This document shows, in pieces, positions 1 to 24,632 of a stretch of DNA of 64,000 bases. This DNA is from a virus. Position 1 is the first letter of the stretch. Every line of letters begins with the position of its first letter. The DNA is taken from positions 1-64,000 of the IMG/VR virus record IMGVR_UViG_3300047470_000295; one strand, given 5' to 3'. The notes beneath the pieces were generated by a model. That model did not search any database. It had not been told where the DNA came from and saw only the letters and a program-made list of their open reading frames with translations. The translations under genes and the position numbers were made by a program.

Positions 1-644
1 CCTCGATGCCGGACTGGTTCACCGCCATGCAGGCGGTGGTCGACCAGTACGCGCAGACGTCGGCGGCGTTGGGTGCCGAGTTCTACGACGCCCAACGGGA
101 GGCGGCACGCGTCGCCAGCACGTTCACCGTGCCGGTCGTGGACCCGCCGTCACCGGAGCAGACCGAGGCGAGCCTGCGATGGGCCGCCAAGGATGTCTGG
201 GACCGTGACCCGGGCACGGCGACCGAGGCGCAGCTCCAGCCGGTCGAGATCCGTCTGGATCAGGCGGAGAAGAAGGCTGAGGCGGTCGCCCAGAAGCTGG
301 TCGCGGATACCGGGCGGTCAACGGTTCTGGGCGCGGTGCGTCGAGACGCGCAGGCGACAGCGTGGGCACGGTCTGCGGCGCTCGGAGCGTGCGCGTTCTG
401 CAAGCTACTGGCGGCCCGCGGGTCGGTGTACGCGCAGGACACGGCTGGTTTCCGGGCGCATGACGGTTGCCATTGCGGCGTCATCCCGGTCTTCCGAGGG
501 CAGAAGTTCGAGCCCTCCCCGCAGGCTTCCGAGTGGGCGCGGTCGTACGAGGAGTACGCCGCTGGCCATTCGGGGAGTCAACTGGCTCGCTTCCGGCGGG
601 CGCTGGCGGAGCACGACTCGAATCCGCTCCCCGGTTCTTTCTGA
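1..644 (+). CDS. phage head morphogenesis protein, MuF/SPP1 gp7-like, C-terminal part (5' end cut by window edge)
   Basis: Frame is open to base 1. C-terminal Cys/His motif CAFC...HDGCHCGVIPV. Lies directly upstream of the scaffold and capsid genes. Confidence 0.55.
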   Translation, partial: SMPDWFTAMQAVVDQYAQTSAALGAEFYDAQREAARVASTFTVPVVDPPSPEQTEASLRWAAKDVWDRDPGTATEAQLQPVEIRLDQAEKKAEAVAQKLVADTGRSTVLGAVRRDAQATAWARSAALGACAFCKLLAARGSVYAQDTAGFRAHDGCHCGVIPVFRGQKFEPSPQASEWARSYEEYAAGHSGSQLARFRRALAEHDSNPLPGSF

Positions 645-707
645 TCGACGAGGTCGCCCTGGTGGCGGCCTTTCTCATTTCCACAGCCCCTGGAGGGCCG
701 ATTCGTC

Positions 708-1361
708 ATGCCTGAAGAGACCGAGCAGAGCAGCGAGCAGCAGGAGTCCGGGACCGAGGAGACCGTCGAGGAGACGGCCACTGCGGAACAGGACGGTACC
801 GAGCAGCAGGACGACGCCCAGGAGGCGGACGCCGGCGGCGAGGAGAAGCCGTTCGACCGGAAGAAGTTCGAAGCAGCGCTGCGCAAGAAGAACAGCGAGG
901 CCGAGAACCTCCGCAAGCGGCTCAAGGAGCAGGAGCCACTGCTGGCCGAACTCAAGAAGCGCAAGGAAGCGGACCTGTCCGAGTCCGAGCGCCTCACCGA
1001 GCAGCTCACGGCAGCGCAGGAGCAGATCGCCAAGACCCGGCAGCGGCTGGTCCGCAGCCAGGTGCAGGCCCTCGCTGGCACCGCAACAGACGGTCGGGCG
1101 GCGTTCGCCGATCCCGCCGACGCGTTCGGTGAGCTCGACCTCGACTCGTACATCGACTCTGACGGCGACATCGACGAGGCGGCCATCGAGGCCGACCTTC
1201 AGGCGCTTTTGGAGCGCAAGCCGCACTGGGCGAAGACCCAGCCCCCGGAGGGCCCGCGGCGTCCTGCGCCGGACCGCACTCAGGCGTCCGGCGCCAACAA
1301 GACACGCCCCCTCACCCCCGAAGACGAGTTCTCCGGGTGGCTCAAGTCGCAGCTCACGTAG
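708..1361 (+). CDS. capsid scaffolding protein
   Basis: 217 aa, very acidic N-terminus (E/D/Q rich) and coiled-coil-like KK/EE middle. Immediately precedes the major capsid gene. Confidence 0.65.
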   Translation: MPEETEQSSEQQESGTEETVEETATAEQDGTEQQDDAQEADAGGEEKPFDRKKFEAALRKKNSEAENLRKRLKEQEPLLAELKKRKEADLSESERLTEQLTAAQEQIAKTRQRLVRSQVQALAGTATDGRAAFADPADAFGELDLDSYIDSDGDIDEAAIEADLQALLERKPHWAKTQPPEGPRRPAPDRTQASGANKTRPLTPEDEFSGWLKSQLT

Positions 1362-1380
1362 CTGCTGAAAGCGAGAAGTC

Positions 1381-2340
1381 ATGGTGGCCACGGCCCCCCT
1401 CAAGCTGTCCGATGTCAACGCCTCACTCCTGCCGCGCACCATCACGGCGCCGATCTTCGAGAAGAGTGTCGAGCAGTCCGCGGTGATGACGCTGGCCCGT
1501 CCGGCGCCGCTCGCGATCGACGCGACCACGTCGGTGCCGATCCCGATGGACGTGCCGCAGGCCGACTGGGTCGGCCAGGCGCAGAAGAAGCCGCTGAGCT
1601 CGTCTTCGGTCGGCATCAAGCAGATGACGGCGAAGAAGCTCGCGGTGCTCATCCCGGTCGCCGAAGAGGTCGCCATGACCAACGCGGGAGGCCTGTACAC
1701 GCAGCTCCAGCGTGACCTGCCGACCGCGTTCGCCCGCGCCTTCGACCACGCGGCGATCCACGGCCTGACCATGAAGGGCGCGGCCGGCCCGTTCTCCGAC
1801 TACCTGGCGATGACCACGAACTCGGTGGTTCTCGGCACGTCCTCGCAGAGCACGGGCGGGATCTGGGCCGACCTGGTCAAGGGCATGGAGAAGGTGATCG
1901 ACGACGACTTCGACTACACGGGGACCGTCGCCGACCACCGCCTGAAGCCGAAGCTGCTGTTGGCGACCGACACCACCGGGCGCCCGATCCTGGTCGACAC
2001 GCAGACCCCGGGCACGAACATGGCGTCCGCCGGCACCCTGATCGGTGAGCCGCTCGCCTACTCGCGTTCGGTGTCGGGCAAGCAGCGCCGCCAGTCGACC
2101 AGCTCGGACTCCGGGCTGCGGGCGATCGGCGGCGACTGGTCGCAGGCGGCCTACGGCGTCGGCATGGACATCACCGTGCGGATCTCGAAGGAGGCCACGT
2201 ACATCGACGAGGACGGCGGCGTCCACTCGGCGTTCCAGGAGAACCTGGTGCTGATCCTCGCGGAGGCCTACTACGGCTACGTGCAGGGCGACGCGTCCGC
2301 GTTCGTGAAGTACACCGGCACCCCGGCCTACGGGTCGTGA
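1381..2340 (+). CDS. major capsid protein (HK97-fold type by position and size)
   Basis: 319 aa ORF 20 nt after the scaffold gene with strong coding frame. C-terminus ends in TGTPAYGS. Confidence 0.75.
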   Translation: MVATAPLKLSDVNASLLPRTITAPIFEKSVEQSAVMTLARPAPLAIDATTSVPIPMDVPQADWVGQAQKKPLSSSSVGIKQMTAKKLAVLIPVAEEVAMTNAGGLYTQLQRDLPTAFARAFDHAAIHGLTMKGAAGPFSDYLAMTTNSVVLGTSSQSTGGIWADLVKGMEKVIDDDFDYTGTVADHRLKPKLLLATDTTGRPILVDTQTPGTNMASAGTLIGEPLAYSRSVSGKQRRQSTSSDSGLRAIGGDWSQAAYGVGMDITVRISKEATYIDEDGGVHSAFQENLVLILAEAYYGYVQGDASAFVKYTGTPAYGS

Positions 2341-2375
2341 CCGAGGCCCGCGGCGGCGGGAAGAGCGGCCGGGCG

Positions 2376-3362
2376 ATGCAGGTCGTCGCCCGGCTGCACG
2401 CCGCCCCGCCCCGGCACAACGCGGGGGCGGAGTGGATGGCCTGGTCGATGTTCCGTGCTCTCGTCGAGCGCGGGCACGATGTCACGGTGTGGCTGTCCAG
2501 GTACGGCGAGGACCACGAGCCGTATGAGCTGGACGGCGTGAAGGTGATCCCTCTGGAGTCGCGCCTGGACTTCGCTACGGCTGTCCGTCGGGCGAGTGTC
2601 CTGGTGTCGCATCTGGAGAACGTGAAGCCGACGGCGGCTCTGGCCCGCGGGTACGGGAAGCCGTTCGTGGCGATCTGCCACAACACGTTCACGCCGACGT
2701 TCAAGGACATGGCGTCCGGTGGGACCGCGCTGGCGGTGTACAACTCGCAGTGGATGGCGCGGGAAGCGGACGTCTTCTTCGCGGAGTATCCGAAGACGAT
2801 CCGGCCGGAGCAGTCGCTGATCATTCGGCCTCCGGTGTTCGCTGAGGACTATGCGACGAAGCCCGGCGACCGGATCACCCTCATCAACACCAACCCCGAC
2901 AAGGGCGGCGGGCTGTTCCACGACCTCGCCAAGCGCATGCCGGACCGGGAGTTCCTTGCCGTGATGGGCGCCTACGGCGCGCAGACCGACTACTCGGACC
3001 TGCCGAACGTCGAGGTCGTCGAGCAGATGTCCGGGCACGAGATGCGGGAGGCGGTGTACAGCCGCACGAAGGTGCTGCTCATGCCGTCGTTCTACGAGTC
3101 GTGGGGTCGTGCCGGCGTGGAAGCGCTCGCGAGCGGCATCCCCGTTCTCGCGCATCCGACGCCGGGCCTGTGCGAGTCGCTGGCCGAGGGCGGGATTTTC
3201 CTGGAGCGGCAGGATCTCGACGGGTGGGAGGCGGTCCTGCGGAAGCTGGAGACGCCTGCCGAGTACCGGCTGGCGTCGAAGCGGGCGAAGGCTCGCAGCG
3301 CCGAACTGGACCCGACGGCGGAACTGTCCGCCTGGTGCGACGCCGTGGAGGCCCTGGCTTAG
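2376..3362 (+). CDS. glycosyltransferase, GT-B fold, GT4/GT1-like
   Basis: Motif PSFYESWGRAGVEALASGIPV (E-x7-E) near the C-terminus and N-terminal MQVVARLHAAPPRHNAGAEW. An alternative GTG start at 2337 overlaps the capsid stop (GTGA). Confidence 0.7.
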   Translation: MQVVARLHAAPPRHNAGAEWMAWSMFRALVERGHDVTVWLSRYGEDHEPYELDGVKVIPLESRLDFATAVRRASVLVSHLENVKPTAALARGYGKPFVAICHNTFTPTFKDMASGGTALAVYNSQWMAREADVFFAEYPKTIRPEQSLIIRPPVFAEDYATKPGDRITLINTNPDKGGGLFHDLAKRMPDREFLAVMGAYGAQTDYSDLPNVEVVEQMSGHEMREAVYSRTKVLLMPSFYESWGRAGVEALASGIPVLAHPTPGLCESLAEGGIFLERQDLDGWEAVLRKLETPAEYRLASKRAKARSAELDPTAELSAWCDAVEALA

Positions 3363-3371
3363 GAGGACGCT

Positions 3372-3785
3372 GTGGCATTCGTTCCTCCAACCGCCGAACA
3401 GCTCGGCCTCATCCTGGGCCTCGACGAGATCCAGGGCGACCGAGCCGATCTCCTCATCACGACGGCCACATCGCTCTGCCAGACCGTCGTGAAGCCTTTG
3501 CCTGAGGGCGCGGAGGCCGTCGTCCTGTCGGTGGCCGGGCGGGCCTACGTGAATCCGCAGCAGGTCAGTTACGAGACGATCGGCCCGATGTCCGTGCAGC
3601 GCCCGTCCGGTTCGGGCGGCCTGTATCTGACGAAGGCCGACAAGTCTGCGCTGAAGTCGCTGGCCGGCCGGGGTGGCGCGTTCACCGTCGACCCGACTCC
3701 CGCTGCGGCGGATCCTTCCGCGACGTGGCCGCTCGATGATGCCGTGTTCTTGGAGGATTTCGAGGCGGGCTGGGGGTTGCCCTGA
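3372..3785 (+). CDS. head-tail connector/adaptor protein
   Basis: 137 aa, GTG start preceded by AGGAGGA. Position between head and tail genes. Confidence 0.5.
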   Translation: MAFVPPTAEQLGLILGLDEIQGDRADLLITTATSLCQTVVKPLPEGAEAVVLSVAGRAYVNPQQVSYETIGPMSVQRPSGSGGLYLTKADKSALKSLAGRGGAFTVDPTPAAADPSATWPLDDAVFLEDFEAGWGLP

Positions 3786-4147
3786 TGCCTGCCCCGTACC
3801 CCTACGGCGAGACGGTGCGGATCCTGCGCACCGGAGATTCGCCGGGCCGCGGGCCGCGCGGCCAGCCTCTGCCGGGCCTGGACGAGTCCTTCGACCTTGA
3901 AGGCTGCGTCGTCACTCCTCGGGCGGAAACGCCGCAGGTGGGTGGGGATCAGCAGCAGGCCAGGGACACCGTCATCGTCGGCTGGACCGTCTACGCCCCC
4001 GCTGGCAAACCAGTCCGCACCACCGATCAGGTGATGATCCGCGGCGTGAGGTGCGACATCACCGGCGAGCCCGGCGACTGGGGACGCAGCCCGTTCACCG
4101 GAACCCGCGGTGTCATCCAGTTCGCTGCCGACCGCGTCACCGGCTGA
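3785..4147 (+). CDS. head closure / head-tail joining protein
   Basis: 120 aa, ATG overlaps the upstream stop (TGATG). Call rests on position in the connector module. Confidence 0.45.
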   Translation: MPAPYPYGETVRILRTGDSPGRGPRGQPLPGLDESFDLEGCVVTPRAETPQVGGDQQQARDTVIVGWTVYAPAGKPVRTTDQVMIRGVRCDITGEPGDWGRSPFTGTRGVIQFAADRVTG

Positions 4148-4163
4148 CCGAGAGGGAGGCGCC

Positions 4164-4499
4164 GTGCCGGCCAAGTTCAAGATGAAGAAGAAGGGCGTCG
4201 GGCAACTCCTTCGATCGCCGATGATGGAGGCGGAGATGCTCCGCCGCGCCAAGGTCATCGAGGGCGTCGCCGTGGCGACGTCGCCTGTCGACATCGCGGG
4301 CCCGCACCCTGGGCACTACGCCGGATCCTGGGAGACGGACAGTACGTCTCGCGGCGGCCAGCGTCGTGACCGCGCCGTCGGCGTCGTCCGCAATACCGCC
4401 TACTACGCCCGCTGGGTCGAGTACGGCAACGGGCATCCCAACGGCCCCGCACATCACGTGCTGCTACGTGCGGCACTGCAGGGCGGGCGGAACCAGTGA
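4164..4499 (+). CDS. HK97 gp10-like neck/tail component
   Basis: Motif RNTAYYARWVEYGNG is typical of the HK97 gp10 family. GTG at 4164 is preceded by GAGGGAGG, so the track ORF start at 4110 is probably too early. Confidence 0.55.
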   Translation: MPAKFKMKKKGVGQLLRSPMMEAEMLRRAKVIEGVAVATSPVDIAGPHPGHYAGSWETDSTSRGGQRRDRAVGVVRNTAYYARWVEYGNGHPNGPAHHVLLRAALQGGRNQ

Positions 4500-4885
4500 C
4501 CGCACTCGTCGACATCGAGCTGGAGCTCATCACCCGCGGGACGGCCCGGTTCCCGGACGCGGTCGTGCGCGATGAGATCGACAACCGTCTCCTCGGTGAG
4601 CTGCCGACGATCCAGATTGAGCAGATCCCGGGCGGCGGCGACGACGGTCTGCGGCTGGCCCGGCTGATCGTCGACATCAACGTGTATGCCCCTACCAGGG
4701 CTGACGCCATCGCGCTGGCCCGCGAGGTGCACGACTGGGTGACAGGCGAACTGCGCGGCTCCAGCGGCGACTCGATCGCCATCGGCCGAACGGGCTGCCT
4801 GTCGCTGCCTGCAATCCGCCCCTACGAAAATGTTGCACTGCGACGGGTTGGTGCGACCTACGAGATCTACTGTCACCCGTCCTGA
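4496..4885 (+). CDS. tail terminator / tail completion protein (positional call)
   Basis: 129 aa, GTGA overlap with the upstream gene. Last gene before the major tail protein apart from an inserted cassette. Confidence 0.4.
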   Translation: MTALVDIELELITRGTARFPDAVVRDEIDNRLLGELPTIQIEQIPGGGDDGLRLARLIVDINVYAPTRADAIALAREVHDWVTGELRGSSGDSIAIGRTGCLSLPAIRPYENVALRRVGATYEIYCHPS

Positions 4886-5046
4886 TCTGCGATCGCTTCG
4901 ATCGCCTCGTCGTACCAGTCTGGCGGCACCAAGACGGCTGCCCGCCTTCCGTGACGGGTGATCGCGACGTGCTTGCCCTGCCATTGTGTGGCGTTCAAGA
5001 GCTGGGCGAACTGCTCACGCGCCTCTTGGACCTTGTATTCCTCCAT
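4873..5046 (-). CDS. Phd/YefM-like type II antitoxin, orphan (57 aa; below the ORF-track cutoff)
   Basis: Hand translation of the minus strand gives MEEYKVQEAREQFAQLLNATQWQGKHVAITRHGRRAAVLVPPDWYDEAIEAIADQDG. This matches the Phd/YefM N-terminal pattern (R..F..ll....G..v.ItrhGr..AvLvp...Y). Lower-GC patch, and the gene converges on the tail gene end by 13 nt. Confidence 0.55.
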   Translation of the reverse strand: MEEYKVQEAREQFAQLLNATQWQGKHVAITRHGRRAAVLVPPDWYDEAIEAIADQDG

Positions 5047-5073
5047 GTCGGAAGCGTACAGCTCGATCAGACC

Positions 5074-5095
5074 GTAAGGTTAGGTCAAACCTTAC
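5074..5095. promoter_or_regulatory. 8-bp inverted repeat GTAAGGTT-N6-AACCTTAC in the divergent Phd-like/HNH intergenic region (candidate operator)
   Basis: Perfect arms at 5074-5081 and 5088-5095, between the minus-strand ATG at 5046 and the plus-strand ATG at 5109. Confidence 0.4.
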
Positions 5096-5108
5096 AGATC
5101 GGGACGGC

Positions 5109-5678
5109 ATGGAGAAGACTTGCACGAGGTGCGGCGAGACCAAAGAGCGCGGCGACTTCCGTAAAAGGAAGAGCAGTAAGGACGGGCTAGCCACAGAATG
5201 CAGAGCGTGCGCTTGCGCTCGCGACCGTCAGTGGACCCGCGAGAATCAAGACCACCGGAGGGCATACCGTGAGCGCACCAAGAAGGAGCGCAGCGAGTAC
5301 GCCAAGCGGTGGTATTCAGAGAACCCGGGGTACCGGGAGCGGTACTACCGGGAGAACAAGGCCGCCAACTATGAGCGCCGCTATCGGTGGATCGAGCTGA
5401 ACCCCGAGAAGCACCGCGCACTCTCCGCGAAGCGTCGCGCAGCCCTGAGGGCGACTTCGGATCTCGAAGCAGTCGCCGAGTACATGGGGCTCCTACGGGC
5501 AGACCCGTGCGTCTACTGCGGATCTCCGACGAACCACATCGATCACATAGTCCCCCTTGCCAGAGAGGGCGCGCACGAGTGGGGCAATCTCGCCCCTACG
5601 TGCGCCACCTGCAACGCATCGAAGGCGACGCAGGATGTTCTGACCTTCATGCTGCGTCGACTCACTACAGCCACATAA
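5109..5678 (+). CDS. HNH endonuclease
   Basis: C-terminal YCGSPTNHIDHIVPLAREGAHEWGNLAPTCATCNASK (HNH/His-Me finger) and an N-terminal CxxC. ATG at 5109 fits better than the track start at 4986, which overlaps the Phd-like ORF. Confidence 0.8.
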   Translation: MEKTCTRCGETKERGDFRKRKSSKDGLATECRACACARDRQWTRENQDHRRAYRERTKKERSEYAKRWYSENPGYRERYYRENKAANYERRYRWIELNPEKHRALSAKRRAALRATSDLEAVAEYMGLLRADPCVYCGSPTNHIDHIVPLAREGAHEWGNLAPTCATCNASKATQDVLTFMLRRLTTAT

Positions 5679-5766
5679 CTGCCACCCGGTCTCCTGACCG
5701 GATCTGGGCCCGCGCCGGACCCTGTACCCGCCCGTGCGCGGGCTCTTCCATGTCTGGAGACATCTC

Positions 5767-6354
5767 ATGGTCAACATCACCCGCGCCGCGGACCTGGCCC
5801 TGGTCGGAGCGAACGGCGGAGGATGGGTGGCGCCGGTCGGCACCACGGCTCCCGCTTCTCCGCTCATCCAGCCGGCCACCCCCTGGGAGCCGCTGGGCGC
5901 CATCAGCGACGACGGTCTGACCTACGGCTTCGACGAGGACTCTCAGGAGTTCACGCCGTGGGGTCTGACCTCGCCGTTCCGTACCCAGATCACCAAGTCT
6001 GTGAGGACGTTCGGGCTGACGGTGTGGGAGACGTCGCGAACCACTGTGCAGTCGTTGCAGTACCGGCTCGACGCGGAGGCCCTGGAGCCGGACGGTGACG
6101 GCCTCACCAAGTACGCGGAGACTGCCTCGCCCGTCCCGGACCGCCGCGCGTTCTGGTTCCTCGTCATCGACGGCGACGCCTACAAGGGCTTCTACGTCCC
6201 GCAGGGTGAGATCAACGACCGCTCCGACGTGACGTACAAGCAGGACGAGATGTCCGGCTTCGAGTGGACGATCACCACTTACCCGGATGACCAGGGCAAC
6301 ACGGTCTACCACGTCGACAAGATCCCCGCGACGCCCACGTACACGGGCTCCTGA
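5767..6354 (+). CDS. major tail protein
   Basis: 195 aa, ATG at 5767 after GGAGA. Lies immediately upstream of the chaperone pair and tape measure. C-terminus ends in ATPTYTGS. Confidence 0.6.
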   Translation: MVNITRAADLALVGANGGGWVAPVGTTAPASPLIQPATPWEPLGAISDDGLTYGFDEDSQEFTPWGLTSPFRTQITKSVRTFGLTVWETSRTTVQSLQYRLDAEALEPDGDGLTKYAETASPVPDRRAFWFLVIDGDAYKGFYVPQGEINDRSDVTYKQDEMSGFEWTITTYPDDQGNTVYHVDKIPATPTYTGS

Positions 6355-6448
6355 ACGGGTGGGCGGGCCGGTATAGCCAGCCGGCGCGGGCCCGGTCCGC
6401 CCACCTCTGCACACTGCCCGCGCCGTTACAGAAGGAGAGGCCCGCGCC

Positions 6449-6880
6449 ATGGCCACACCTCGCAAGTCGACTGCTAGCAGCAGGAAGCCGCGCACTGCCG
6501 CCCGATCCGCGTCCCGCCCTCCGGTCTCGCGCCGTGACGTCGAGCTCGAAGAGGTCGACGAGCCGGACGTCACCGAGGCCGAGGCTCAGGAGATTGAGGC
6601 CGAAGGGCACTACGTGTCGGCCTCCCTGTGTGGCGAGGAGCTGCGCATCATCCCGCCTGGGGCTTGGCGGCAGTCGTGGCACCGCCTGCTGAACGGCGGT
6701 CAGTTCGATGCGTTCGCCGAGCTGGTCCTTCACCCGGACGATGTTGATGCATATTTCGACATCGACCCAACGAACGACGAGTTCAGCGAGTTCGTCGGCG
6801 ACGCCGCCGAACAGTCCGGTGAGAGCTTGGGGAAATCGCGTGGACCCGCTCCGTCGTCGAGGCGCACGCGGAGGCGGTAG
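6449..6880 (+). CDS. tail assembly chaperone (G-like, short product)
   Basis: 143 aa ORF directly before the tape measure, with the canonical position of the G/GT pair. Confidence 0.7.
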   Translation: MATPRKSTASSRKPRTAARSASRPPVSRRDVELEEVDEPDVTEAEAQEIEAEGHYVSASLCGEELRIIPPGAWRQSWHRLLNGGQFDAFAELVLHPDDVDAYFDIDPTNDEFSEFVGDAAEQSGESLGKSRGPAPSSRRTRRR

Positions 6881-7290
6881 AAGCGGACCTGTTCCGCTAC
6901 TACCAGGGCGTCGACCTCCTCGGCGTCCACCGCGGCACGATGTCTTGGCGCCGCCTGCGGGTCCTGATCCAGCATCTGCCGTCCGAGTCGGCGACCTGGA
7001 CCGCACTCCGTAACAGCCTGTCGGCCGAGGAGCTGGCCGAGCAGTCGGAGAAGGGCGAGCCGGAGAAGGGCCGCTGGTCTCAGAGCGATCACCTTCTGGC
7101 CGTGATCGCGGATCGGGTTGCCCGCCTGGAGTACGTGCTGATCAGCGTCAACACCGAGCAGAAGTCGAAGCGGCCGAGGGCCCCCGAGCCGATCCGCCGG
7201 CCGGGAGCCAAGTCCGTCCAGGCGAAGCAGCAGATGTCGGAGCTGCAGGCCAACACCCTGTTTTCGCTGATCAATGGAGGCGCCGCGTAG
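6449..7290 (+). CDS. tail assembly chaperone, -1 frameshift fusion (GT-like, long product)
   Basis: The -1 frame opens at 6823 (stop at 6820-6822). It reads LGEIAWTRSVVEAHAEAVEADLFRYYQGVDLL... into the 6940..7290 ORF and ends 20 nt before the tape measure start. Confidence 0.6.
6829..6835 (+). promoter_or_regulatory. candidate -1 slippery site GGGGAAA
   Basis: Zero frame reads TTG GGG AAA TCG. This is the only homopolymeric slip site inside the 6823-6880 overlap window. Confidence 0.5.
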
Positions 7291-7309
7291 CGCTGAGGGG
7301 AGGCCCTCA

Positions 7310-10300
7310 GTGCCCGCAATCTCTGTCGGCTCCGTCGAGGTCGACGTTCTGCCTAGTGCCCGGGGGATTCGGGGCCGCCTGCAGGCGGCCCTCGTCCCGC
7401 CGGCCACGCAGGTCGGCGACGAGATTGGCCGCATCATCGGTCAGCGTCTTGCCGCCCAGATCGCGCCGGCCATCCGTGATGGCATCAACAACGGCGCTGC
7501 TGCGGCGAAGCCGGCGGCGACGCGGCAGGGCTCTGAGACTGGTGGCGCTTTCGCACGCTCGCTGCGGGCGAAGCTCACTGAGGCGTTCCGCAGCATGCCC
7601 AAGCTGGACGTCAAGCTTGGCGATACGGGCGTGGACGCCGACCTTGCCCGCCTGAGGGCGAAGCTGGAGTCCCTGTCCGGCAAGACGGTCGGTGTCGACA
7701 TCGACGCGGCGACGGCGCGCGCGCAGGCGGCGGACATCGAGGAGCGGCTGCGTCGTATCGGCGCAGCTCACCCGAACGTCGCGGTGCGGGCCGACACGGC
7801 ACGGGCTATCGCCCAGTTGCAGGCTCTGCAGGCGCAGATCGACGAGGTGTCGGCTGACCCGCTTCGGATCCGCATGGAGACGGACGGTCAACTCGGCACC
7901 CGCCTGCGGGCTGCTGTCGCGCAGGCCGAGGCCTCCCTTCCGAACATCAACATCGGTGCGGACACGACTCCGGCCGAGGTGGAGATCGCTCGCCTTCGGG
8001 CACAGTTGACGTCCCTGCGTGACGCTCGGGTCGGTGTCGACATCGACGCCGACACCGCACTGGCTCGAATCACTGAGATCCAGGCGCGCCTCGCACGCCT
8101 GTCATCGCAGAACGCGAACGTCGGCGTCCGTGTCGATGCCGGGGCGGCTGCCGCCCAGCTGGCCGCATTCCAGGCTGCAGTGAACCGGCTCGACGGCCAG
8201 ACCGCCCGCGTGGACGTCGATACGACGTCTGCCGTGTCCGGCATGCAGGTGCTGATCACGACGGCGATCGCTTTCGGACCGGCCATCATTCCGGCACTGC
8301 CGGTGGTGGCCGCCGGCCTAGGCGCCGTGGCTGCGGCCGGTGTCGCTGCTGCTGCTGGAATCGGCTCGATCGCTCTTGTGGCCGTGCCCGCCTTCAAGGG
8401 CATCGGGTCGGCCCTGACGGCGCAGAAGGCTGCGCAGGATGCGGCGACGAACGCCACCTACAAGGGTGGCCAGGCCTCGTCGCAGGGTGCGTCAAAGGCG
8501 CTGCAACTGGCTGGCGCACAGCAGTCCCTGGCGACCGCTCAGCGCAACGCGGCACGTCAGATCTCTGACGCCGAGCGTGGCGTGAGTGACGCTTCTCGGG
8601 CTGCAGCAAAGGCGAACGCTCAGGCCGCGGCCCAGGTGAAGCAGGCTCGCGTCTCTCTGGCGGACGCGTATGCGGCGGCTGCGGACCGCATGCAGCAGGC
8701 GAACCAGGCGGTCAACCGTGCCGAGCGTGACCTCGCTCAGGCGCAGAAGAGCTCTCGCCAGGCTCAACTGGATCTGACGGCGGCCCGCGCTGAGGCGTCA
8801 CGGCAGCTGCAGGATCTGAACAACCAGCTGAAGGACTCGCAGCTCAGCGAGCGGGACGCCGAGATCGCCTTGAAGGAGGCGACCGCCGCGCGCAACGCGG
8901 TGATGAACAACCCCAACGCGTCCGACCTCGACAAGCAGAAGGCGCTCCTCGCCTACGACCAGGCGGTGCAGCGGCTCAACGAACAACGCCTGGAGACCAA
9001 GCGTCTCCAGGCAGACACGAAGGCCGCGAACAAGGCCGGCGTCGAGGGATCGGCGACGGTCAAGTCAGCGCAGGAGCAGGTCGCAGCAGCGCAGCAGGCG
9101 GTCATCGACAAGACCGCTGACCTGAAGGCTGCGCAGGCTGACGTCACGAAGACGCAGATCGAGAACACCCGGTCGATCGCGGACGCGCAGGCGAAGCTTT
9201 CGGAGGCGCAGAAGAACGTCTCGGAGGCGCAGCGGCAGGGCGCGGAGAACATTGCGCGCGCTCAGGAGCGGGTCGTGCAGGCGCAGCAGTCGGGCGCGGA
9301 CTCGATCGCCTCGGCGCAGCGGCAGATCGCGTCGGCGTCGATGTCGGCGGCCGGTGGGATCGACCAGGCGGCTATCGCTCAGGCCAAGTACCAGGCGGAG
9401 CTGGCGAAGCTCACTCCCGCCGCCCGAGGCACCCTCAACGCGTTCGTCGCGCTGCGGTCGGCGTTCGGCGACTGGTCGAAGTCTCTGCAACCGCAGGTCA
9501 TGCCCATCTTCACGCGGGCGCTGGTGTCGCTGCGGAACACGCTGCCGACCTTGACGCCGTTCGTGAGGGGCGCCGTCACGGCGATCACGGAGTTGCAGGA
9601 CCGGGCCTCGCGGTCGGTGAAGTCGCCGTTCTGGCAGGGCTTCAAGAAGGACTTGCAGGGCAACGTGACGCCCGCGATCGTCGGCCTCGGCGTCGCGATC
9701 GGCCACCTGATCAAGGGCATGGCCGGGATCATCGACGCCTTCCTGCCGCACATGGACAGCATCTCGACGCGGATGCAGCGCATCACCAAGCGGTTCGCCG
9801 ACTGGGGTGCCAACCTCAAGGGCTCGCCCGAGTTCGAGCGGTTCCTGACGTTCGCGTCGGACAAGGCCCCGCTTCTGGGGGATGCGCTCGGCAAGATCGC
9901 GAACGCGTTCCTCCAGGTCGGCGAGGCGCTGTCGCCTCTGTCCGGCCCGCTACTGCAGATCCTCGGCGGGATCGCCAACGCCATCGCGATCGTCGCGGAC
10001 AAGGCGCCGTGGTTCATCCTGTTGATCTACGGGATCGTCGTGGCGATGCGTCTGTGGACGATCGCCCAGTGGGCGTTCAACGCAGCCGCCGCAGCGAACC
10101 CTTACACGCTGATCGTGATCGGGATCCTCGCCCTGATCGCTGCCGTGGTCTACGCCTACAACCGGTTCGGCTGGTTCCGTGCCGGCGTCCAAGCTGTCTG
10201 GGACTGGCTGAAGACGGCATCCCTGTACCTGTGGAACACGGTGCTGAAGCCGGTCTTCACGGCCATCGGCAACGTCGTCGTCTGGCTGTGGACGTACATC

Positions 10301-12244
10301 ATCAAGCCGTACATCGGCTTCATCATCGCGTACTTCAAGGGCGTCGCCAGCGTGGCGATGTGGATCTGGACGAACGCGATCCAGCCTGCCTTCAACTTCA
10401 TCGCGGCGGCGGCGAAGATCCTGTTCACGGCGCTGGTCGTGATCGTCCTTCTCCCGATCATCGCGACGTTCAAGATCCTGGCCGCGACTGGGATGTGGCT
10501 GTGGAACAACGCGATCAAGCCAGCCTTCCAGGGCATCGCCACGGTCGCCCTCTGGCTGTGGAAGAACGTCTTCCAGCCGACGTTCCAGCAGATCGGCGAC
10601 AAGGCCAAGTGGCTCTGGGCGAATGCGATCAAGCCCGCATGGGACGGCATCAAGTCCGGCGCGAAGATCATGTGGGAGAACGTGCTCCGGCCGCTCTTCA
10701 ACGCCTTCGTGCTCGGACTGAAGACCGTCGGCAAGTGGGGCGTCTGGCTGTGGAAGAACGCCCTGAAGCCTGCCTGGGACGGGATTGTCCTCGTCTCCAA
10801 GTACGCCTGGGACAAGGGCATCAAGCCGGTCTTCAACGGCATCAAGACCGCGGTCGGCAAGGTCGCGGACGCATTCAAGATGGCGAAGGACGCCATCAAG
10901 CTCGCCTGGGACAAGATCAAGGGAATCGCGAAGGCGCCCGTCCAGTACGTCGTCGACGTCGTCTACAACAACGGCATCCGCGGCGTCTGGAACAAGGTCG
11001 CCAGCGCGTTCGGGGCACCGAAGCTCGGCAAGTTCAGCTTCGCCTCCGGCGGCATCATGCCTGGCTACACGCCCGGCAAGGACGTCCACAAGTTCGTCTC
11101 GCCCACCGGTGGCGCGCTCGAACTGTCGGGTGGCGAGGCCATCATGCGGCCCGAGTTCACCCGCGCTGTCGGCTCCGGGTTCATCAACACGCTCAACTCG
11201 ATCGCCTCCACCAGGGGTGCGACAGGCGTGAAGTCGGCTCTGGCGCCGGTGTTCGGCGGCAGCGCACCGATGAGCACGGACATGTCCTCGCGGTACGCAA
11301 CCGGCGGCATCGTCCAGAAGTTCGCGGACGGCGGCATCTTCGGGTGGATCAAGTCGGCCGGTTCGGCGCTGAAGGGTGCCGGGTCGGACGCCTGGAACAA
11401 CATCAAGAAGGGTGCCTCCTGGCTGACCGACAGCCTGGAATCGTCAGCGCGGGCGGGCGTCAAGAACGTCGTCAACCCGCTCCTGTCCAAGTTCCCGGGC
11501 ATGGACACCGGGTTCGGCAAGCTGATCCGGAAGATCCCCGACAAGATCATTGACGCCCTGTTCGGTTACAGCAAGAAGGCCGACAGCAAGGGCGCCGGTG
11601 GGATCGGCGGACCACGGATCGCGGCAGGACTGAAGTGGGCGAAGACGCAGGCTGGCCTGCCCTACCAGTGGGCCGGTAACGGCAACCCCTCGTGGGACTG
11701 CTCGGGCTTCATGTCGGCGATCGAGTCCGTCATCCGAGGTCAGAAACCGCACCGCCGGTGGGCGACCGGGGCCTTCAGCGGGAAGACGGCCCCGCCCGGC
11801 TGGGTCTACCACGGCAACAGCCCATTCAAGATCGGCATCACCAACGCCGGCGTCGGCCACACGGCGGGAACGATCGCCAAGACCAACGTCGAATCGAGGG
11901 GCGGTGCTGGTGTCGTTGTGGGCTCCCGGGCCCGCGGCTACAACGACCGCCTGTTCGGCTCGTGGTACGGCTTCAAGCCCGGTACCTACGACGCCGGCGG
12001 CTACATTCCGCCCGGCCTCAACCTCGTCAACAACGGTACGGGCAGGCCCGAACCGGTGTTCACGACGGCGCAGGCCAACGCGCTCACCTCCATGGCGGCG
12101 CGCGGCAGCTCGTCAGGCCCGTCGAGCTTCGAAGGCAACCTCTATCTCGACTCCGGCGAGTGGCTAGGCCGGGTTCGCGGTGAGGCATCGGCCGTCATGC
12201 GGGAGGGCCAAGAGGCCCTGATCCAGGTACTCAACGCGAGCTGA
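7310..12244 (+). CDS. tape measure protein with internal transmembrane/W-repeat region and C-terminal NlpC/P60-like peptidase domain
   Basis: 1644 aa from a GTG after GGGGAGG. Long Ala/Gln coiled-coil N-half, hydrophobic segments, and PYQWAGNGNPSWDCSGF...GHTAG (Cys-His peptidase motif) near 11.62-11.96 kb. Confidence 0.9.
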   Translation: MPAISVGSVEVDVLPSARGIRGRLQAALVPPATQVGDEIGRIIGQRLAAQIAPAIRDGINNGAAAAKPAATRQGSETGGAFARSLRAKLTEAFRSMPKLDVKLGDTGVDADLARLRAKLESLSGKTVGVDIDAATARAQAADIEERLRRIGAAHPNVAVRADTARAIAQLQALQAQIDEVSADPLRIRMETDGQLGTRLRAAVAQAEASLPNINIGADTTPAEVEIARLRAQLTSLRDARVGVDIDADTALARITEIQARLARLSSQNANVGVRVDAGAAAAQLAAFQAAVNRLDGQTARVDVDTTSAVSGMQVLITTAIAFGPAIIPALPVVAAGLGAVAAAGVAAAAGIGSIALVAVPAFKGIGSALTAQKAAQDAATNATYKGGQASSQGASKALQLAGAQQSLATAQRNAARQISDAERGVSDASRAAAKANAQAAAQVKQARVSLADAYAAAADRMQQANQAVNRAERDLAQAQKSSRQAQLDLTAARAEASRQLQDLNNQLKDSQLSERDAEIALKEATAARNAVMNNPNASDLDKQKALLAYDQAVQRLNEQRLETKRLQADTKAANKAGVEGSATVKSAQEQVAAAQQAVIDKTADLKAAQADVTKTQIENTRSIADAQAKLSEAQKNVSEAQRQGAENIARAQERVVQAQQSGADSIASAQRQIASASMSAAGGIDQAAIAQAKYQAELAKLTPAARGTLNAFVALRSAFGDWSKSLQPQVMPIFTRALVSLRNTLPTLTPFVRGAVTAITELQDRASRSVKSPFWQGFKKDLQGNVTPAIVGLGVAIGHLIKGMAGIIDAFLPHMDSISTRMQRITKRFADWGANLKGSPEFERFLTFASDKAPLLGDALGKIANAFLQVGEALSPLSGPLLQILGGIANAIAIVADKAPWFILLIYGIVVAMRLWTIAQWAFNAAAAANPYTLIVIGILALIAAVVYAYNRFGWFRAGVQAVWDWLKTASLYLWNTVLKPVFTAIGNVVVWLWTYIIKPYIGFIIAYFKGVASVAMWIWTNAIQPAFNFIAAAAKILFTALVVIVLLPIIATFKILAATGMWLWNNAIKPAFQGIATVALWLWKNVFQPTFQQIGDKAKWLWANAIKPAWDGIKSGAKIMWENVLRPLFNAFVLGLKTVGKWGVWLWKNALKPAWDGIVLVSKYAWDKGIKPVFNGIKTAVGKVADAFKMAKDAIKLAWDKIKGIAKAPVQYVVDVVYNNGIRGVWNKVASAFGAPKLGKFSFASGGIMPGYTPGKDVHKFVSPTGGALELSGGEAIMRPEFTRAVGSGFINTLNSIASTRGATGVKSALAPVFGGSAPMSTDMSSRYATGGIVQKFADGGIFGWIKSAGSALKGAGSDAWNNIKKGASWLTDSLESSARAGVKNVVNPLLSKFPGMDTGFGKLIRKIPDKIIDALFGYSKKADSKGAGGIGGPRIAAGLKWAKTQAGLPYQWAGNGNPSWDCSGFMSAIESVIRGQKPHRRWATGAFSGKTAPPGWVYHGNSPFKIGITNAGVGHTAGTIAKTNVESRGGAGVVVGSRARGYNDRLFGSWYGFKPGTYDAGGYIPPGLNLVNNGTGRPEPVFTTAQANALTSMAARGSSSGPSSFEGNLYLDSGEWLGRVRGEASAVMREGQEALIQVLNAS
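10195..10925 (+). repeat. tandem protein-level repeats inside the tape measure (about 9 copies of W-[LI]-W-x-N-[AV]-[IL]-[KQ]-P-x-[FW])
   Basis: Copies read directly from the translation: WLWTYIIKPY, WIWTNAIQPAF, WLWNNAIKPAF, WLWKNVFQPTF, WLWANAIKPAW, MWENVLRPLF, WLWKNALKPAW, YAWDKGIKPVF. Confidence 0.7.
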
Positions 12245-18789: not shown

Positions 18790-19141
18790 GACGTGGACCG
18801 CACTGTCGGGAGGCGTGGTCGGAGTCGTATCAGCAGGGGTCACCGCTTGGGGCGCACGCTCCGCGCGGCGCACCAAACGGCAAGAGAGCCGAGACGACTT
18901 CCTCGCCATCACGACCCAGCAGGGCAACGCGATCGAACGACTCGAAGCACGCGTCCAACGGCAGGAGACCGAGGCGGAGAAGCAGCGGCAGCGGATCGGC
19001 GACCAGGACGAAGCCATCGGGTGGCTCCTGTACCGGGTCCGCTCCCTCGTCTCCCACATCAAGAAGGCCGGCATGGAACCCCCGGCGGCAGAGCCGATGT
19101 CGGAGCAGGCGGCCCGCTACATCCGCAACATCGATGCGTGA
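18779..19141 (+). CDS. N-terminally anchored coiled-coil protein (lysis-cassette accessory)
   Basis: One N-terminal TM helix (LSGGVVGVVSAGVTAWG) followed by a charged coiled coil. Confidence 0.4.
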   Translation: MNAETWTALSGGVVGVVSAGVTAWGARSARRTKRQESRDDFLAITTQQGNAIERLEARVQRQETEAEKQRQRIGDQDEAIGWLLYRVRSLVSHIKKAGMEPPAAEPMSEQAARYIRNIDA

Positions 19142-19155
19142 GAACTGGAGTACGG

Positions 19156-19317
19156 ATGCCTCAGCCTGAGCCGATCCCGATGCGGCCACGCCGAGACGAT
19201 GCCGCGGCCGACGCGGACACCCTCGAAGAGATGGGCCGCCTCGACGAACAGCCGACACCGGCGCCGTCGATCAGCCCATTCCTCGAACCCGACTACCCGC
19301 CAGACCAGCCCGCGTGA
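19156..19317 (+). CDS. small hypothetical protein
   Basis: 53 aa, ATG at 19156, acidic/Pro-rich, followed by a strong hairpin. Confidence 0.25.
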   Translation: MPQPEPIPMRPRRDDAAADADTLEEMGRLDEQPTPAPSISPFLEPDYPPDQPA

Positions 19318-19322
19318 ACGAC

Positions 19323-19357
19323 GCCCCCGCTAGCCGCCTTCGGGCGGCGGCGGGGGC
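19323..19357 (+). terminator. intrinsic terminator-like nested hairpin ending the late operon
   Basis: GCCCCCGC-tA-GCCGCC-ttcg-GGCGGC-g-GCGGGGGC followed by GCATTTCTG. Confidence 0.55.
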
Positions 19358-19448
19358 GCATTTCTGTCACTGGGGTCAGCTACGTTGCTGTTCCGCGGCG
19401 CGCCACCTGAAAGACGCTCAGGCGCGCATGATCCAAACGGAAGGCGCC

Positions 19449-19883
19449 ATGAGTAGCTCCGACGGTGACGGCATCGTCACGACCCAGCCGATCCACGACC
19501 TCTACCTCTCACTGCTCCTGACCATGATCGAGAGCGGTGATGCTGTAACCAGCATGTCCATCATGCTGAGCACCACCAGTGGCGTTGTTACGGGCGATCT
19601 CGTGTCCCGAGAAGCCTGGAAGGCTCTCTGGACCGAGACGATCCTCACGAAGGCCAACGCGAGTGCCGGTTCGATGGGCCTCTTCCCCGACACCGTCGAT
19701 CGCCTGATCGAAGAGGTAAGAAGTGAGGATGGTGCCAGTGGCGACTCCGACGACTCCAACCCACACTTCGTGCACCTCAAGGACGCCGTCGTCTTCGTCG
19801 GGAAAGATCGCATCAATCTGCGCTTTTGGCGTGGCCGGCTGGACTCGGTAGTTGGCTGGAGCCTCGGTAAGGTCGACGTCTGA
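19449..19883 (+). CDS. GvpU-like protein (gas vesicle accessory protein GvpU family, by recollection)
   Basis: 144 aa from the ATG at 19449 after GGAAGG, with lower GC. Motifs SIMLSTTSGVVTGDLVSREAW and HFVHLKDAVVFVG...FWRGRLDSVVGWSLGK parallel the Bacillus megaterium GvpU pattern (HFIHLKN...FWRGKIAEVDGFFLGK). Confidence 0.5.
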   Translation: MSSSDGDGIVTTQPIHDLYLSLLLTMIESGDAVTSMSIMLSTTSGVVTGDLVSREAWKALWTETILTKANASAGSMGLFPDTVDRLIEEVRSEDGASGDSDDSNPHFVHLKDAVVFVGKDRINLRFWRGRLDSVVGWSLGKVDV

Positions 19884-19894
19884 TCCGCACGACA

Positions 19895-19938
19895 CCGCCC
19901 CCGTTCCTCTCGCCTCAACGGCGGGGGAGCGGGGGCGG
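19895..19938. terminator. hairpin between convergent genes
   Basis: CCGCCCCCG at 19895-19903 pairs with CGGGGGCGG at 19930-19938. Confidence 0.35.
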
Positions 19939-19948
19939 CTTCGTCGTG

Positions 19949-20269
19949 CTAACGCGTCTCGCGGATCGCCTTCGCGAGGTCGTGGATGGCGGCACTGAAC
20001 GCCAGCAGAGAATACGTCTGAGCCCGCGACAGTGCTGCCGCCTGCTCGGCGGAGCCGTCCTCTCCTGCATAGCTGTCGTCCAGACCGTGCACCGCTCGCG
20101 CCTGCAGCTGCTCGTAGCTTCGCTCCGTCATGCCCACCCCTTCGTCGACTGCCAGAGGCGAGAGTCTGTCGAAGGCGGTGCCGGCTGTCAGTAGGGCGTC
20201 GGGGACGTAGCTATAGGTGACCGTCCAATAATCGATCGATTGTTGGACGGTGGGGTGCCAGGTGGTCAT
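19949..20269 (-). CDS. hypothetical protein
   Basis: 106 aa, lower GC, divergent from the recombinase gene. Its 5' end contains a 30-bp near-palindrome. Confidence 0.45.
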   Translation of the reverse strand: MTTWHPTVQQSIDYWTVTYSYVPDALLTAGTAFDRLSPLAVDEGVGMTERSYEQLQARAVHGLDDSYAGEDGSAEQAAALSRAQTYSLLAFSAAIHDLAKAIRETR

Positions 20270-20306
20270 CCTGCGCGTACCTGGGGGTTCAGGTGTCCAA
20301 AAAGGC

Positions 20307-20357
20307 TGTACAGAAAGTCTTGTTGTCTATCAACTCCCAACTACCCTTTTCTGTACA
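20307..20357. promoter_or_regulatory. 10-bp perfect inverted repeat TGTACAGAAA ... TTTCTGTACA upstream of the serine recombinase (candidate recombinase/res-type site or operator)
   Basis: Arms at 20307-20316 and 20348-20357 with 31 bp between them. The right arm ends 8 nt before the recombinase ATG. Confidence 0.45.
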
Positions 20358-20365
20358 CTGAGTTC

Positions 20366-21043
20366 ATGACCTCAGCCGCCCAGTGGGCAGACGAAGGAGA
20401 CGACGCGCTAGCCGCGTTCCCCGCCAACCTCTCCGGCGTTCAGATCGGATACGCCCGAGTCTCAACGAAGGGGCAGAACCTCGACCGCCAGATCGCCGCG
20501 CTCACCGACTGCGGCTGCGCCAAGATCTTCGCTGACAAGAAGTCCGGGAAGAACGCCGAGCGCGAGGAGCTCTGGAAGGCGCTGGAGTACGCACGCCCGG
20601 GCGACACGATCGTCGTCCCCTCCCTCGACCGCCTCGGCCGCTCCATTCAAGACCTGATCGCGATCGTGGGCGGACTTCGCAAGCGCGGCATCGGCTTCCG
20701 ATCACTCCACGAAGCACTGGACACCACCACGCCGGGCGGCCGGCTCGTCTTTCACGTCTTCGCCGCACTGGCCGAGTTCATCCGGGAGTTGATCGTGCAA
20801 GGCACACACGAGGGCCTTGCCGCGGCCCGCGCCAGGGGGGAACGCCTTGGCCGGCCGCCAGCGATGAACGACGAGCAAGTCCGACACGCGCGAGCGATGC
20901 TGGCCGACCCTGAAGCATCCGTCACTTCGATCGCCAAGCTCCTTGGCGTCTCCCGGATGACGATCTATAAATACGTGCCTGAGCTCTCAGCCGGGCGGGC
21001 CTCTCTCGTGGCAACAGATCACTCGAAGGGGATCGCAAGGTGA
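20366..21043 (+). CDS. small serine recombinase (resolvase/invertase family)
   Basis: 225 aa. GYARVSTKGQNLDRQ catalytic-Ser motif, VVPSLDRLGRS, and a C-terminal HTH (ASVTSIAKLLGVSRMTIYKYV). Confidence 0.85.
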   Translation: MTSAAQWADEGDDALAAFPANLSGVQIGYARVSTKGQNLDRQIAALTDCGCAKIFADKKSGKNAEREELWKALEYARPGDTIVVPSLDRLGRSIQDLIAIVGGLRKRGIGFRSLHEALDTTTPGGRLVFHVFAALAEFIRELIVQGTHEGLAAARARGERLGRPPAMNDEQVRHARAMLADPEASVTSIAKLLGVSRMTIYKYVPELSAGRASLVATDHSKGIAR

Positions 21044-21978: not shown

Positions 21979-22000
21979 GCCGTGATCCTCGTCTGAGGAC

Positions 22001-22351
22001 CTACCCCAGTACGCCGAGCGCGCTGTCCGGCCGGCAGTGCGTGCACGCCGGGACCTGCGCGGCGAGGGCCCGCCGGGCGTCGTCCTCGGAGACGCCGACG
22101 CTGCGCTTGCCCGCCATGTGGCAGCCCCCGACGTGGACGGCGACGGGCGGTGTGTGTCCGTCGAGGCCGCGCTCGATGAGCCAGTCGGGCTCCGGGGGCC
22201 GGCGCTGGCGGCCCTGCTCGATCTCGGCTTCCCGCTGCTCGGCCGCGGCGATGGCCTGGTCGAGGCGCTGGACCCATAGCTGGTGCCAGGTCCGCAGGGT
22301 GCGGAGCTGGGGCAGGTCGGTCGGAAGGTCGGCCACTACCTCAGCTTGCAC
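22001..22351 (-). CDS. DUF6233-like protein (recollection of a Streptomyces mobile-element-associated family)
   Basis: C-terminal VHVGGCHMAGKRSVGVSEDDARRALAAQVPACTHCRPDSALG. Start uncertain: GTG at 22351 or ATG at 22393, the latter overlapping the divergent gene. Confidence 0.5.
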   Translation of the reverse strand: MQAEVVADLPTDLPQLRTLRTWHQLWVQRLDQAIAAAEQREAEIEQGRQRRPPEPDWLIERGLDGHTPPVAVHVGGCHMAGKRSVGVSEDDARRALAAQVPACTHCRPDSALGVLG

Positions 22352-22357
22352 GTTAAT

Positions 22358-22373
22358 TCGAACACGCGCTCTA
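22358..22373. promoter_or_regulatory. SOS-box-like site TCGAAC-N4-GCTCTA
   Basis: Perfect left half and 4/6 right half of the actinobacterial LexA box TCGAAC-N4-GTTCGA. Ends 8 nt upstream of the LexA-DBD-like gene. Confidence 0.35.
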
Positions 22374-22381
22374 ATCGGAGT

Positions 22382-22803: not shown

Positions 22804-22822
22804 GCTCTGCCATCCTGGCCGC

Positions 22823-24566: not shown

Positions 24567-24632
24567 CGCAGGATCATAGGTCGCCGCCTCAAAGCCCTCA
24601 CATCGGCACCACGAACGACGCACCCTGAAGCC

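Follow-up and report, generated by a model that had tools for sequence, protein, structure and literature searches.

We analysed a stretch of viral DNA of 64,000 nucleotides (positions 1 to 64,000 of IMG/VR virus record IMGVR_UViG_3300047470_000295; hereafter the window, with an overall GC content of 0.68) in which two small genes are lodged inside the tail region of a siphovirus-type structural operon. The tail terminator gene (4496..4885, plus strand; phrog_123 at 4e-12) forms the left flank of this pair, and the gene for the major tail (tube) protein (5767..6354, plus strand; PF25681 at 8.7e-18, phrog_117 at 1.9e-38) forms the right flank. Between them lie a reverse-strand gene for a 57-residue protein with a Phd/YefM fold (4873..5046) and a plus-strand gene for a free-standing HNH endonuclease of 189 residues (5109..5678), separated by a 62-bp spacer (5047–5108) that holds a perfect 8-bp inverted repeat (5074–5081 and 5088–5095). 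A preliminary description, made from the letters of the window, had placed the spacer and its repeat as well as the nuclease, including its end coordinate of 5678, correctly. Streptomyces is the source of every related locus, and the host of the two-gene cassette is a Streptomyces prophage, which carries it between two of its tail genes.

No isolated phage was available for comparison. A megablast search with positions 4000–6600 against isolated phages gave no match, and a distant blastn search matched nothing but 140 nt of the major tail gene, in Gordonia phages; we therefore turned to loci from prophages and metagenomes. Homology to the major tail protein yielded 150 loci (70 from species-representative genomes and 80 from viral contigs), in which the genes for the terminator, Phd, HNH and the major tail protein were placed by tblastn. 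The site is empty in 147 loci, with 67–94 bp between the terminator and major tail genes. Phd and HNH are present in two loci, where the gap measures approximately 900–950 bp, and the corresponding gap in the window is 881 bp. Because the insertion-free relatives retain 67–94 bp, the inserted DNA amounts to approximately 800 bp and not to the 880 bp of the preliminary description, which was nevertheless right in calling the insertion genuine and lower in GC (0.615 for 4886–5678 versus 0.688 and 0.681 in the 2-kb flanks). Two genes make up this compact mobile cassette (4886–5678), which is lodged at the very 3′ end of the tail terminator gene. The last of the 150 loci, L075, has another insert at this junction, a reverse-strand DUF4429+SHOCT gene (3419–3886, minus strand), and since a different gene fills the same place, the terminator/major tail junction is an insertion hotspot. 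Reverse-strand DUF4429 genes also occur as morons between head–tail genes in other relatives (6930–7250 in L004/L005 and 3497–3823 in L010).

The left boundary was defined by comparison with 12 empty-site sequences, the empty-site consensus and an alignment of 10 cassettes. Empty sites read ...TTCTGCCACCCGGTCTCCTGACCGG... across the end of the terminator gene. At the left junction (4871..4885, plus strand), where the retained target copy is TGTCACCCG---TCCTGA, the window reads TACTGTCACCCG---TCCTGA, and cassette DNA starts directly past the terminator stop codon. The insertion has slightly remodelled the C-terminus of the terminator, which ends in ...YCHPS here and in ...FCHPVS in empty-site phages. 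At the right junction (5679..5701, plus strand), a second complete copy of the now non-coding terminator 3′ end, CTGCCACCCGGTCTCCTGACCGG, follows directly after the HNH stop codon and is identical to the empty-site sequence, so that the cassette is flanked by a duplicated terminator 3′ end. This right-hand copy includes the palindrome CCGGTC-TCCT-GACCGG.

The same palindrome is contained in an 18-nt element, CA(C/T)CCGGT(C/T)TCCTGACCG (also written CA(C/T)CCGGTCTCCTGACCG), that spans the terminator stop codon and has its counterpart in the window at 5683–5701. The element is near-invariant across approximately 145 empty sites, at third codon positions too, and the terminator proteins of these loci drop to approximately 40% identity. 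In occupied sites, the target sequence is split or altered at the left junction. A near-invariant element at a stop codon is the kind of sequence suited to targeting by a homing endonuclease, and the right-junction element is probably the ancestral target of the nuclease. It is followed by the ancestral terminator-to-major-tail spacer (5702..5766, plus strand), which is found in empty and occupied alleles and holds a GC hairpin (5708–5715/5736–5743) and a T-rich run. In the empty-site loci (approximately 3900–3990), a conserved GC hairpin with a T-rich run likewise separates the 18-nt element from the major tail gene; in the window, this stretch lies at 5708–5750. Stop-codon element and hairpin probably form an element, RNA or DNA, that regulates expression of the tail genes.

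By tracing homologues of the 57-residue protein to their contigs, we located 12 distinct Phd+HNH cassettes. All are at one site and have the order terminator, reverse-strand Phd, HNH and major tail. Since the two genes always occur together at the same place, they travel as a unit, as the preliminary description had proposed. Relationships among the cassettes, judged by pairwise identities and not by a formal tree test, disagree with those of the phage backbone. The closest backbones, such as L011, have an empty site: its terminator and major tail proteins are 80% and 92% identical with those of the window, and both Phd and HNH are absent. The cassette of L050 shares 82% (Phd) and 77% (HNH) identity with that of the window in a backbone with 67% (terminator) and 73% (major tail) identity. 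In L004/L005, the corresponding values are 76% for Phd, 36% for HNH, 77–78% for the terminator and 88% for the major tail protein.

The Phd-fold protein and the nuclease

The 57-residue protein matches PF02604 (PhdYeFM_antitox) with 41.9 bits (gathering cutoff, 29.8; E 8.4e-11) over profile positions 1–51 of 74, and phrog_375 ('Phd-like antitoxin') at 5e-8. The Phd/YefM signature that the preliminary description had read in this open reading frame (ORF) is thus borne out by a significant profile match. The ORF is not unannotated, as had been thought; the public assembly already has it as a gene call, and its homologues go under the NCBI name 'type II toxin-antitoxin system Phd/YefM family antitoxin'. 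A search of the PDB with a shallow profile gave one weak match only (RelB, E 0.004), and a deeper profile was used. This profile of 106 family members finds P1 Phd with an E of 1.6e-10, aligned to Phd residues 1–51, and also M. tuberculosis RelB1, Rv2865 and VapB46 and E. coli YefM. A tblastn search with the protein found no match in 50,697 isolated phage records, and no second Phd-like gene was found in the 64-kb window.

A first structure model from a shallow alignment of 21 sequences (predicted local distance difference test score (pLDDT) of 72, predicted template modelling score (pTM) of 0.33) was replaced by an AlphaFold (AF2) model based on the 106-sequence alignment, with a pLDDT of 96.3 and a pTM of 0.76. 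The model has strands at residues 2–5, 27–31 and 34–39 and helices at residues 6–11, 13–23 and 42–56; the resulting order of strand, helices, two strands and helix is that of the Phd/YefM N-terminal domain. The best Foldseek match is 4zlx ('N-terminal DNA binding domain of the antitoxin Phd'), with a root-mean-square deviation (rmsd) of 1.4 Å. The Phd–operator complexes 4zm2 and 4zm0 are also among the top matches, and 3hs2 ('PHD truncated to residue 57') is matched with template modelling (TM) scores of 0.85/0.86. For 4zlx, 4zm2 and 3hs2, TM scores range from 0.73 to 0.88 and rmsd values from 1.4 to 1.7 Å.

The chain ends 6–8 residues past the equivalent of Phd residue 51. It comprises the N-terminal dimerisation and DNA-binding domain only, and the C-terminal toxin-binding segment is absent. 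YefM and Phd use the N-terminal domain for binding to palindromic operators and the C-terminal half for binding to the toxin (PMC1802561). In the Phd–Doc system of E. faecalis, where the N-terminal domain of Phd has a different fold, residues 52–79 bind Doc and residues 1–55 alone bind a single palindrome (PMC13034048). The 57-residue protein is a natural 'Phd 1–57', a DNA-binding domain without the toxin-binding tail. It should be noted that a significant Phd/YefM match shows the fold and not antitoxin activity.

Codons were compared in the 10 distinct cassettes for which both flanks are available. The ratio of nonsynonymous to synonymous substitution rates (dN/dS) of Phd is 0.06–0.27. Codons 1–49 are constrained, with a mean proportion of nonsynonymous differences (pN) of 0.08 versus a proportion of synonymous differences (pS) of 0.58, whereas codons 50 to the end (approximately 8 residues) evolve neutrally (pN 0.52 versus pS 0.57). 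The homologues form 21 clusters, all from Streptomyces and mostly of 54–59 residues, across which 18 columns are invariant. The wider family has 556 cluster representatives at E ≤ 0.001, and 55 of the best 149 are no longer than 66 residues. Many Phd-like members are tandem duplications of 110–150 residues with two Phd domains per chain, and others carry long unrelated C-terminal extensions (tandem or extended examples are P0022, P0023, P0026, P0028, P0032 and P0038). Such duplications and extensions suggest that this family of DNA-binding proteins has diversified in the mobile elements of actinobacteria.

In agreement with the preliminary description, no toxin gene lies beside Phd in any of the 12 cassettes; each time, Phd converges on the terminator gene and either abuts or overlaps it. 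A toxin scan, confined to ten ORFs between 20 and 29 kb, found no toxin family among them.

The nuclease combines an N-terminal CxxC...CxxC module with a C-terminal HNH domain and matches PF01844 with 44.5 bits (cutoff, 21.4) and phrog_1035 at 2.6e-27. The DH...N...CxxCN motif and both CxxC pairs are kept in 10 of 10 cassettes. Two types of HNH protein occur, one of 189 residues and one of 201–203 residues, which are mutually 33–36% identical and show dN/dS values of 0.10–0.26 within each type. In the isolated phages, no homologue exceeds 35% identity, and the annotations read HNH endonuclease or endonuclease VII. The protein is presumably a homing-type nuclease, for which we infer cleavage and homing from the sequence. 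Phd, in contrast, is 72–82% identical across the cassettes and does not cluster by HNH type. The regulator-like Phd is the more conserved half of the cassette, and the nucleases have been exchanged around it. A conserved Phd with swapped HNH proteins fits a conserved protein–DNA interaction and not a protein–protein interaction.

The palindrome and the predicted promoter in the spacer

The inverted repeat in the spacer forms the palindrome GTAAGGTT-N6-AACCTTAC (5074..5095, no strand assigned), which we regard as a putative operator because of its repeat structure, its conservation and the enrichment of its motif. In 64 kb, there is a single match to the pattern GTAAGGT-N4-10-ACCTTAC, and 100 shuffles give an expectation of 0. 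Among 194 loci, the palindrome pattern is present in 16, all of which bear the cassette. The best-conserved non-coding stretch in the 10-cassette alignment is CTGTAAGGT-N-ACCTTACAG. The palindrome overlaps the −35 region of the Phd promoter, and its other end is separated from the HNH start codon by 13 nt. The left arm contains, in each of the cassettes, the TAnnnT hexamer TAAGGT, 28 nt upstream of this start codon.

Read along the coding strand of Phd, all cassettes have the sequence (A/T)CCTTACAG-N13-TAnnnT-N6-ATG. The arrangement TAnnnT-N6-ATG is the expected form of an actinobacterial leaderless promoter, and the Phd mRNA is accordingly predicted to be leaderless. In the window, the predicted −10 hexamer is TACGCT (5053..5058, minus strand), with 6 nt between it and the Phd ATG. 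This assignment is based on conservation: a TAnnnT hexamer is found 6 nt from the ATG in 10 of 10 cassettes and in five more distant Phd-like loci, and across the cassettes, the hexamer varies (TACGCT, TACGAT, TATGCT and TAAGAT) while T-A...T and the 6-nt distance remain constant.

The same promoter architecture is present at distant Phd-like genes (45–67% identical), which lie in unrelated contexts and have no HNH gene. In one group of these, the upstream 130 bp contain 5–6 copies of CCTTAC(A/G) in both orientations, and the array-bearing loci have genes in common with the 55–64 kb region of the window. Among non-redundant loci, CCTTAC/GTAAGG reaches 12.1 per kb in the 160-nt regions that precede Phd-like genes versus 0.19 per kb in the remainder of the same loci, a 63-fold ratio that does not translate into a probability because the loci are kin to one another. 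The motif recurs in at least three otherwise non-homologous contexts. Since the conserved companion feature of the protein is a DNA motif at its own promoter, it points to a transcriptional repressor.

We also considered a role of the palindrome in RNA structure. The predicted RNA fold of the intergenic region is unremarkable (z = −1.5), and in the 10-cassette alignment, the palindrome arms are conserved in sequence and have no compensatory changes. Such a role is therefore not favoured.

Predicted control of the nuclease and alternative explanations

On balance, and with modest confidence, we interpret the insertion as a homing-type HNH cassette that carries its own Phd-fold repressor. In related phages, the conserved sequence CACCCGGTCTCCTGACCGG of the empty site would be cut by the HNH protein, and the cassette would be copied into the break during repair. 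A dimer of the Phd-fold protein would bind the palindrome between the two genes. Because the motif occupies the −35 position, binding would repress phd's own promoter, and because the left arm holds the −10-like hexamer TAAGGT, it would also repress HNH transcription starting in the spacer. In a lysogen, the nuclease would thus be silent. During lytic growth, the late operon must traverse the cassette to reach the tail genes; such read-through would yield HNH transcripts and, through collision, weaken the convergent phd promoter. HNH would also be made in a newly infected cell that is free of repressor.

A more far-reaching version, which we consider rather improbable as a whole, joins zygotic induction of this self-regulating pair of nuclease and repressor to a role of the Phd subfamily and its CCTTACAG operators as a regulatory currency shared by Streptomyces phages and conjugative elements. 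HNH would fire on entry into a repressor-free cell or when late transcription overrides the repressor promoter, and it would cut relatives with an empty site, be they resident prophages or co-infecting phages, thereby both spreading the cassette and disabling competitors. The repressor of one element could then silence genes of another.

Several points speak against a repressor-controlled homing cassette. A sigma-70 consensus scan of 4700–5900 found no promoter, so the promoter calls rest on conservation and on the actinobacterial −10 form. The CCTTACAG motif at −35 could be a promoter element of a particular sigma factor and not an operator, and the palindrome could act as an RNA hairpin in the HNH leader; covariation does not discriminate between operator and hairpin, because the arms are near-invariant. 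A repressor bound within the late operon could hinder transcription of the downstream tail genes. Finally, synonymous divergence between cassettes is near saturation, so their spread may lie far back in time, and the patchy distribution could be due in part to mosaic recombination and not to active homing.

The preliminary description had read the protein as a toxin-less antitoxin and had thought a counter-defence against host Doc/YoeB-type systems plausible. As a counter-defence factor, it would neutralise Doc-, YoeB- or RelE-type toxins released by the abortive-infection toxin–antitoxin (TA) systems of the host. A genuine Phd/YefM fold, the lack of a toxin partner in 12 of 12 loci and a promoter of its own on the strand opposite to the late operon would all agree with this, and phages do carry orphan antitoxin-like genes, for example against DarTG1 (PMC11825919). 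However, toxin contacts in the Phd/YefM family lie in the C-terminal region (PMC1802561; PMC13034048), and it is this toxin-binding half that is missing: the protein ends at the equivalent of Phd residue ∼51–57, and whatever follows codon 49 evolves neutrally. Mixed dimers with canonical antitoxins are unlikely, since the protein has negligible similarity to E. coli YefM (24% identity, E = 4). Moreover, the conserved feature associated with the gene is a DNA motif at its own promoter, and we therefore regard the counter-defence proposal as highly improbable. We give practically no credence to the opposite view that the small ORF is a functionless remnant of a decaying phd–toxin operon or a chance ORF. 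It is short, the C-terminal half of the family profile is missing and spurious ORFs abound in high-GC DNA, but a pseudogene is rejected by the dN/dS of 0.06–0.27 at near-saturated synonymous divergence. A length conserved at 54–59 residues, the 18 invariant columns in 21 homologues, the conserved promoter geometry and the many equally short family members (the 55 of the best 149 cluster representatives with at most 66 residues) argue in the same direction.

Strict co-inheritance in 12 of 12 cassettes, purifying selection on both genes and the plausibility of a nuclease as a toxin would also suit an unconventional TA-like pair, an addiction or superinfection-exclusion module in which HNH is a DNA-damaging toxin and the Phd-fold protein its direct inhibitor. 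Against such a pair, which we regard as very unlikely, the genes are divergent and form no operon, and the constrained 49-residue core has no spare surface comparable to known neutralising tails. Identities of 72–82% in Phd and of 33–36% between the HNH types, with Phd not following the HNH type, argue against a co-evolving interface, and close Phd relatives exist without HNH, just as the HNH family is widespread without Phd. Somewhat more weight, though still short of a likely explanation, is due to the idea that Phd is cargo (a moron) with targets elsewhere, namely host genes or mobile elements with CCTTACAG sites such as Streptomyces conjugative elements, and that HNH is a mere mobiliser. 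Like a typical moron, the gene is on the reverse strand within a late operon and has a promoter of its own; relatives have reverse-strand DUF4429 morons nearby, one of them at the same site; distant Phd-like genes have the same motif arrays in conjugative-element-like loci; and homing endonuclease genes are known to co-mobilise their neighbours (PMC10055350; PMC2988022). Nevertheless, the sole palindrome in the 64-kb window is the cassette's own, TAAGGT/ACCTTA occurs just one further time in the window, and the conjugative-element-like region of the window has no such array. The moron explanation is compatible with autoregulation but adds targets that have not been observed.

The cassette protein can be compared with several known regulators, foremost the Phd (phage P1)/YefM antitoxins, with which it has the N-terminal fold in common (Foldseek matches 4zlx, 4zm2, 3hs2, 2a6q and 9g12, rmsd 1.2–2.1 Å). 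These antitoxins have a palindromic site at their own promoter, as does the cassette gene with its putative operator (PMC1802561). Unlike them, the cassette protein has no C-terminal neutralising segment and no toxin gene, its gene is monocistronic with a predicted leaderless transcript, the half-sites are CCTTACAG and not TGTACA/GTAC cores, and it is located within a nuclease cassette of a phage tail operon. In effect, it is to be found in nature what 'Phd truncated to residue 57' (3hs2) is as a laboratory construct. The anti-DarTG1 gene of T4-like phages is likewise an antitoxin-family gene present in a phage without the toxin, but proteins of that type retain neutralising activity (PMC11825919), whereas the cassette protein is without the toxin-neutralising region of its family. 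With lysogeny-expressed morons in late operons, the gene shares the reverse strand, a promoter of its own and a position between structural genes; it differs from them in being tied to a nuclease gene and a putative operator.

The nuclease half resembles the free-standing HNH homing genes (T4 mob, and the actinobacteriophage genes annotated as HNH endonuclease or endonuclease VII, phrog_1035). Placement between conserved genes, presence or absence at a fixed site, an intact HNH domain, a highly conserved target and a GC content below that of the host phage are shared with them (PMC2988022). The cassette differs in adding a divergent second gene that is more conserved than the nuclease and in being bounded by a duplicated target; homing is proposed here from sequence comparison. 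The predicted control follows the logic of I-TevI autorepression, where a selfish nuclease gene is held down by a protein at a promoter-overlapping operator (PMC2988022). In I-TevI, however, the nuclease itself is the repressor, whereas the predicted regulator of the cassette is a separate Phd-fold protein. The controller (C) proteins of restriction–modification systems use the same logic of repression at a promoter-overlapping operator, but they are helix-turn-helix proteins and also activate transcription.

Genomic surroundings and implications

The structural operon (1 to approximately 19,000) runs from the capsid gene through a family-4 glycosyltransferase gene, the head–tail connectors, the terminator, the major tail gene and the genes in the tail assembly chaperone position (6449–6880 and 6940–7290) to the tape measure gene (7274–12244). 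The glycosyltransferase gene (2337–3362, plus strand), between the capsid and head–tail connector genes, is kept in each related prophage that we looked at, and virion proteins may be the substrates of the enzyme. Within the tape measure gene, GC dips to approximately 0.62 over about 1 kb (10000–11000). In a cassette-bearing relative, L006, the tape measure gene (1–3672, minus strand) has Pfam matches to an intein splicing domain and, faintly, to a LAGLIDADG endonuclease, so that this tail operon has two selfish nuclease elements.

Downstream, a patch of lower GC (0.63–0.65) extends over 19000–29300 and has a serine resolvase gene (20240–21043) inside it. A tyrosine integrase (27067–28359), helix-turn-helix and GntR regulators and DUF6221 and DUF6233 proteins are encoded nearby. 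At approximately 55000–64000, a second mobile element resembles a Streptomyces conjugative element (e.g., 58171–60627, 60815–61420 and 61663–62154), the resemblance being based on an FtsK/SpoIIIE-type protein encoded there. Related conjugative-like elements (L166–L170, L174, L181 and L182) have a distant Phd-like gene preceded by 5–6 CCTTACAG repeats; the copy in the window has neither the Phd-like gene nor the CCTTACAG array.

The annotation 'Phd/YefM family antitoxin' should be read with caution, as the cassette protein is without the toxin-binding tail and the name does not imply antitoxin function. Surveys of TA and counter-defence systems would be misled if such short genes were counted as orphan antitoxins or as candidates for anti-defence. 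If our model is true, the insertion is a homing-endonuclease cassette with a dedicated repressor, in which the regulator is more conserved than the nucleases swapped around it. To our knowledge, no homing-endonuclease cassette with its own dedicated repressor has been described before. The conserved 18-nt target and the operator motif are concrete DNA sites that can be tested, and the cassette would then be a simple system in which to study how lysogens keep selfish nucleases harmless.

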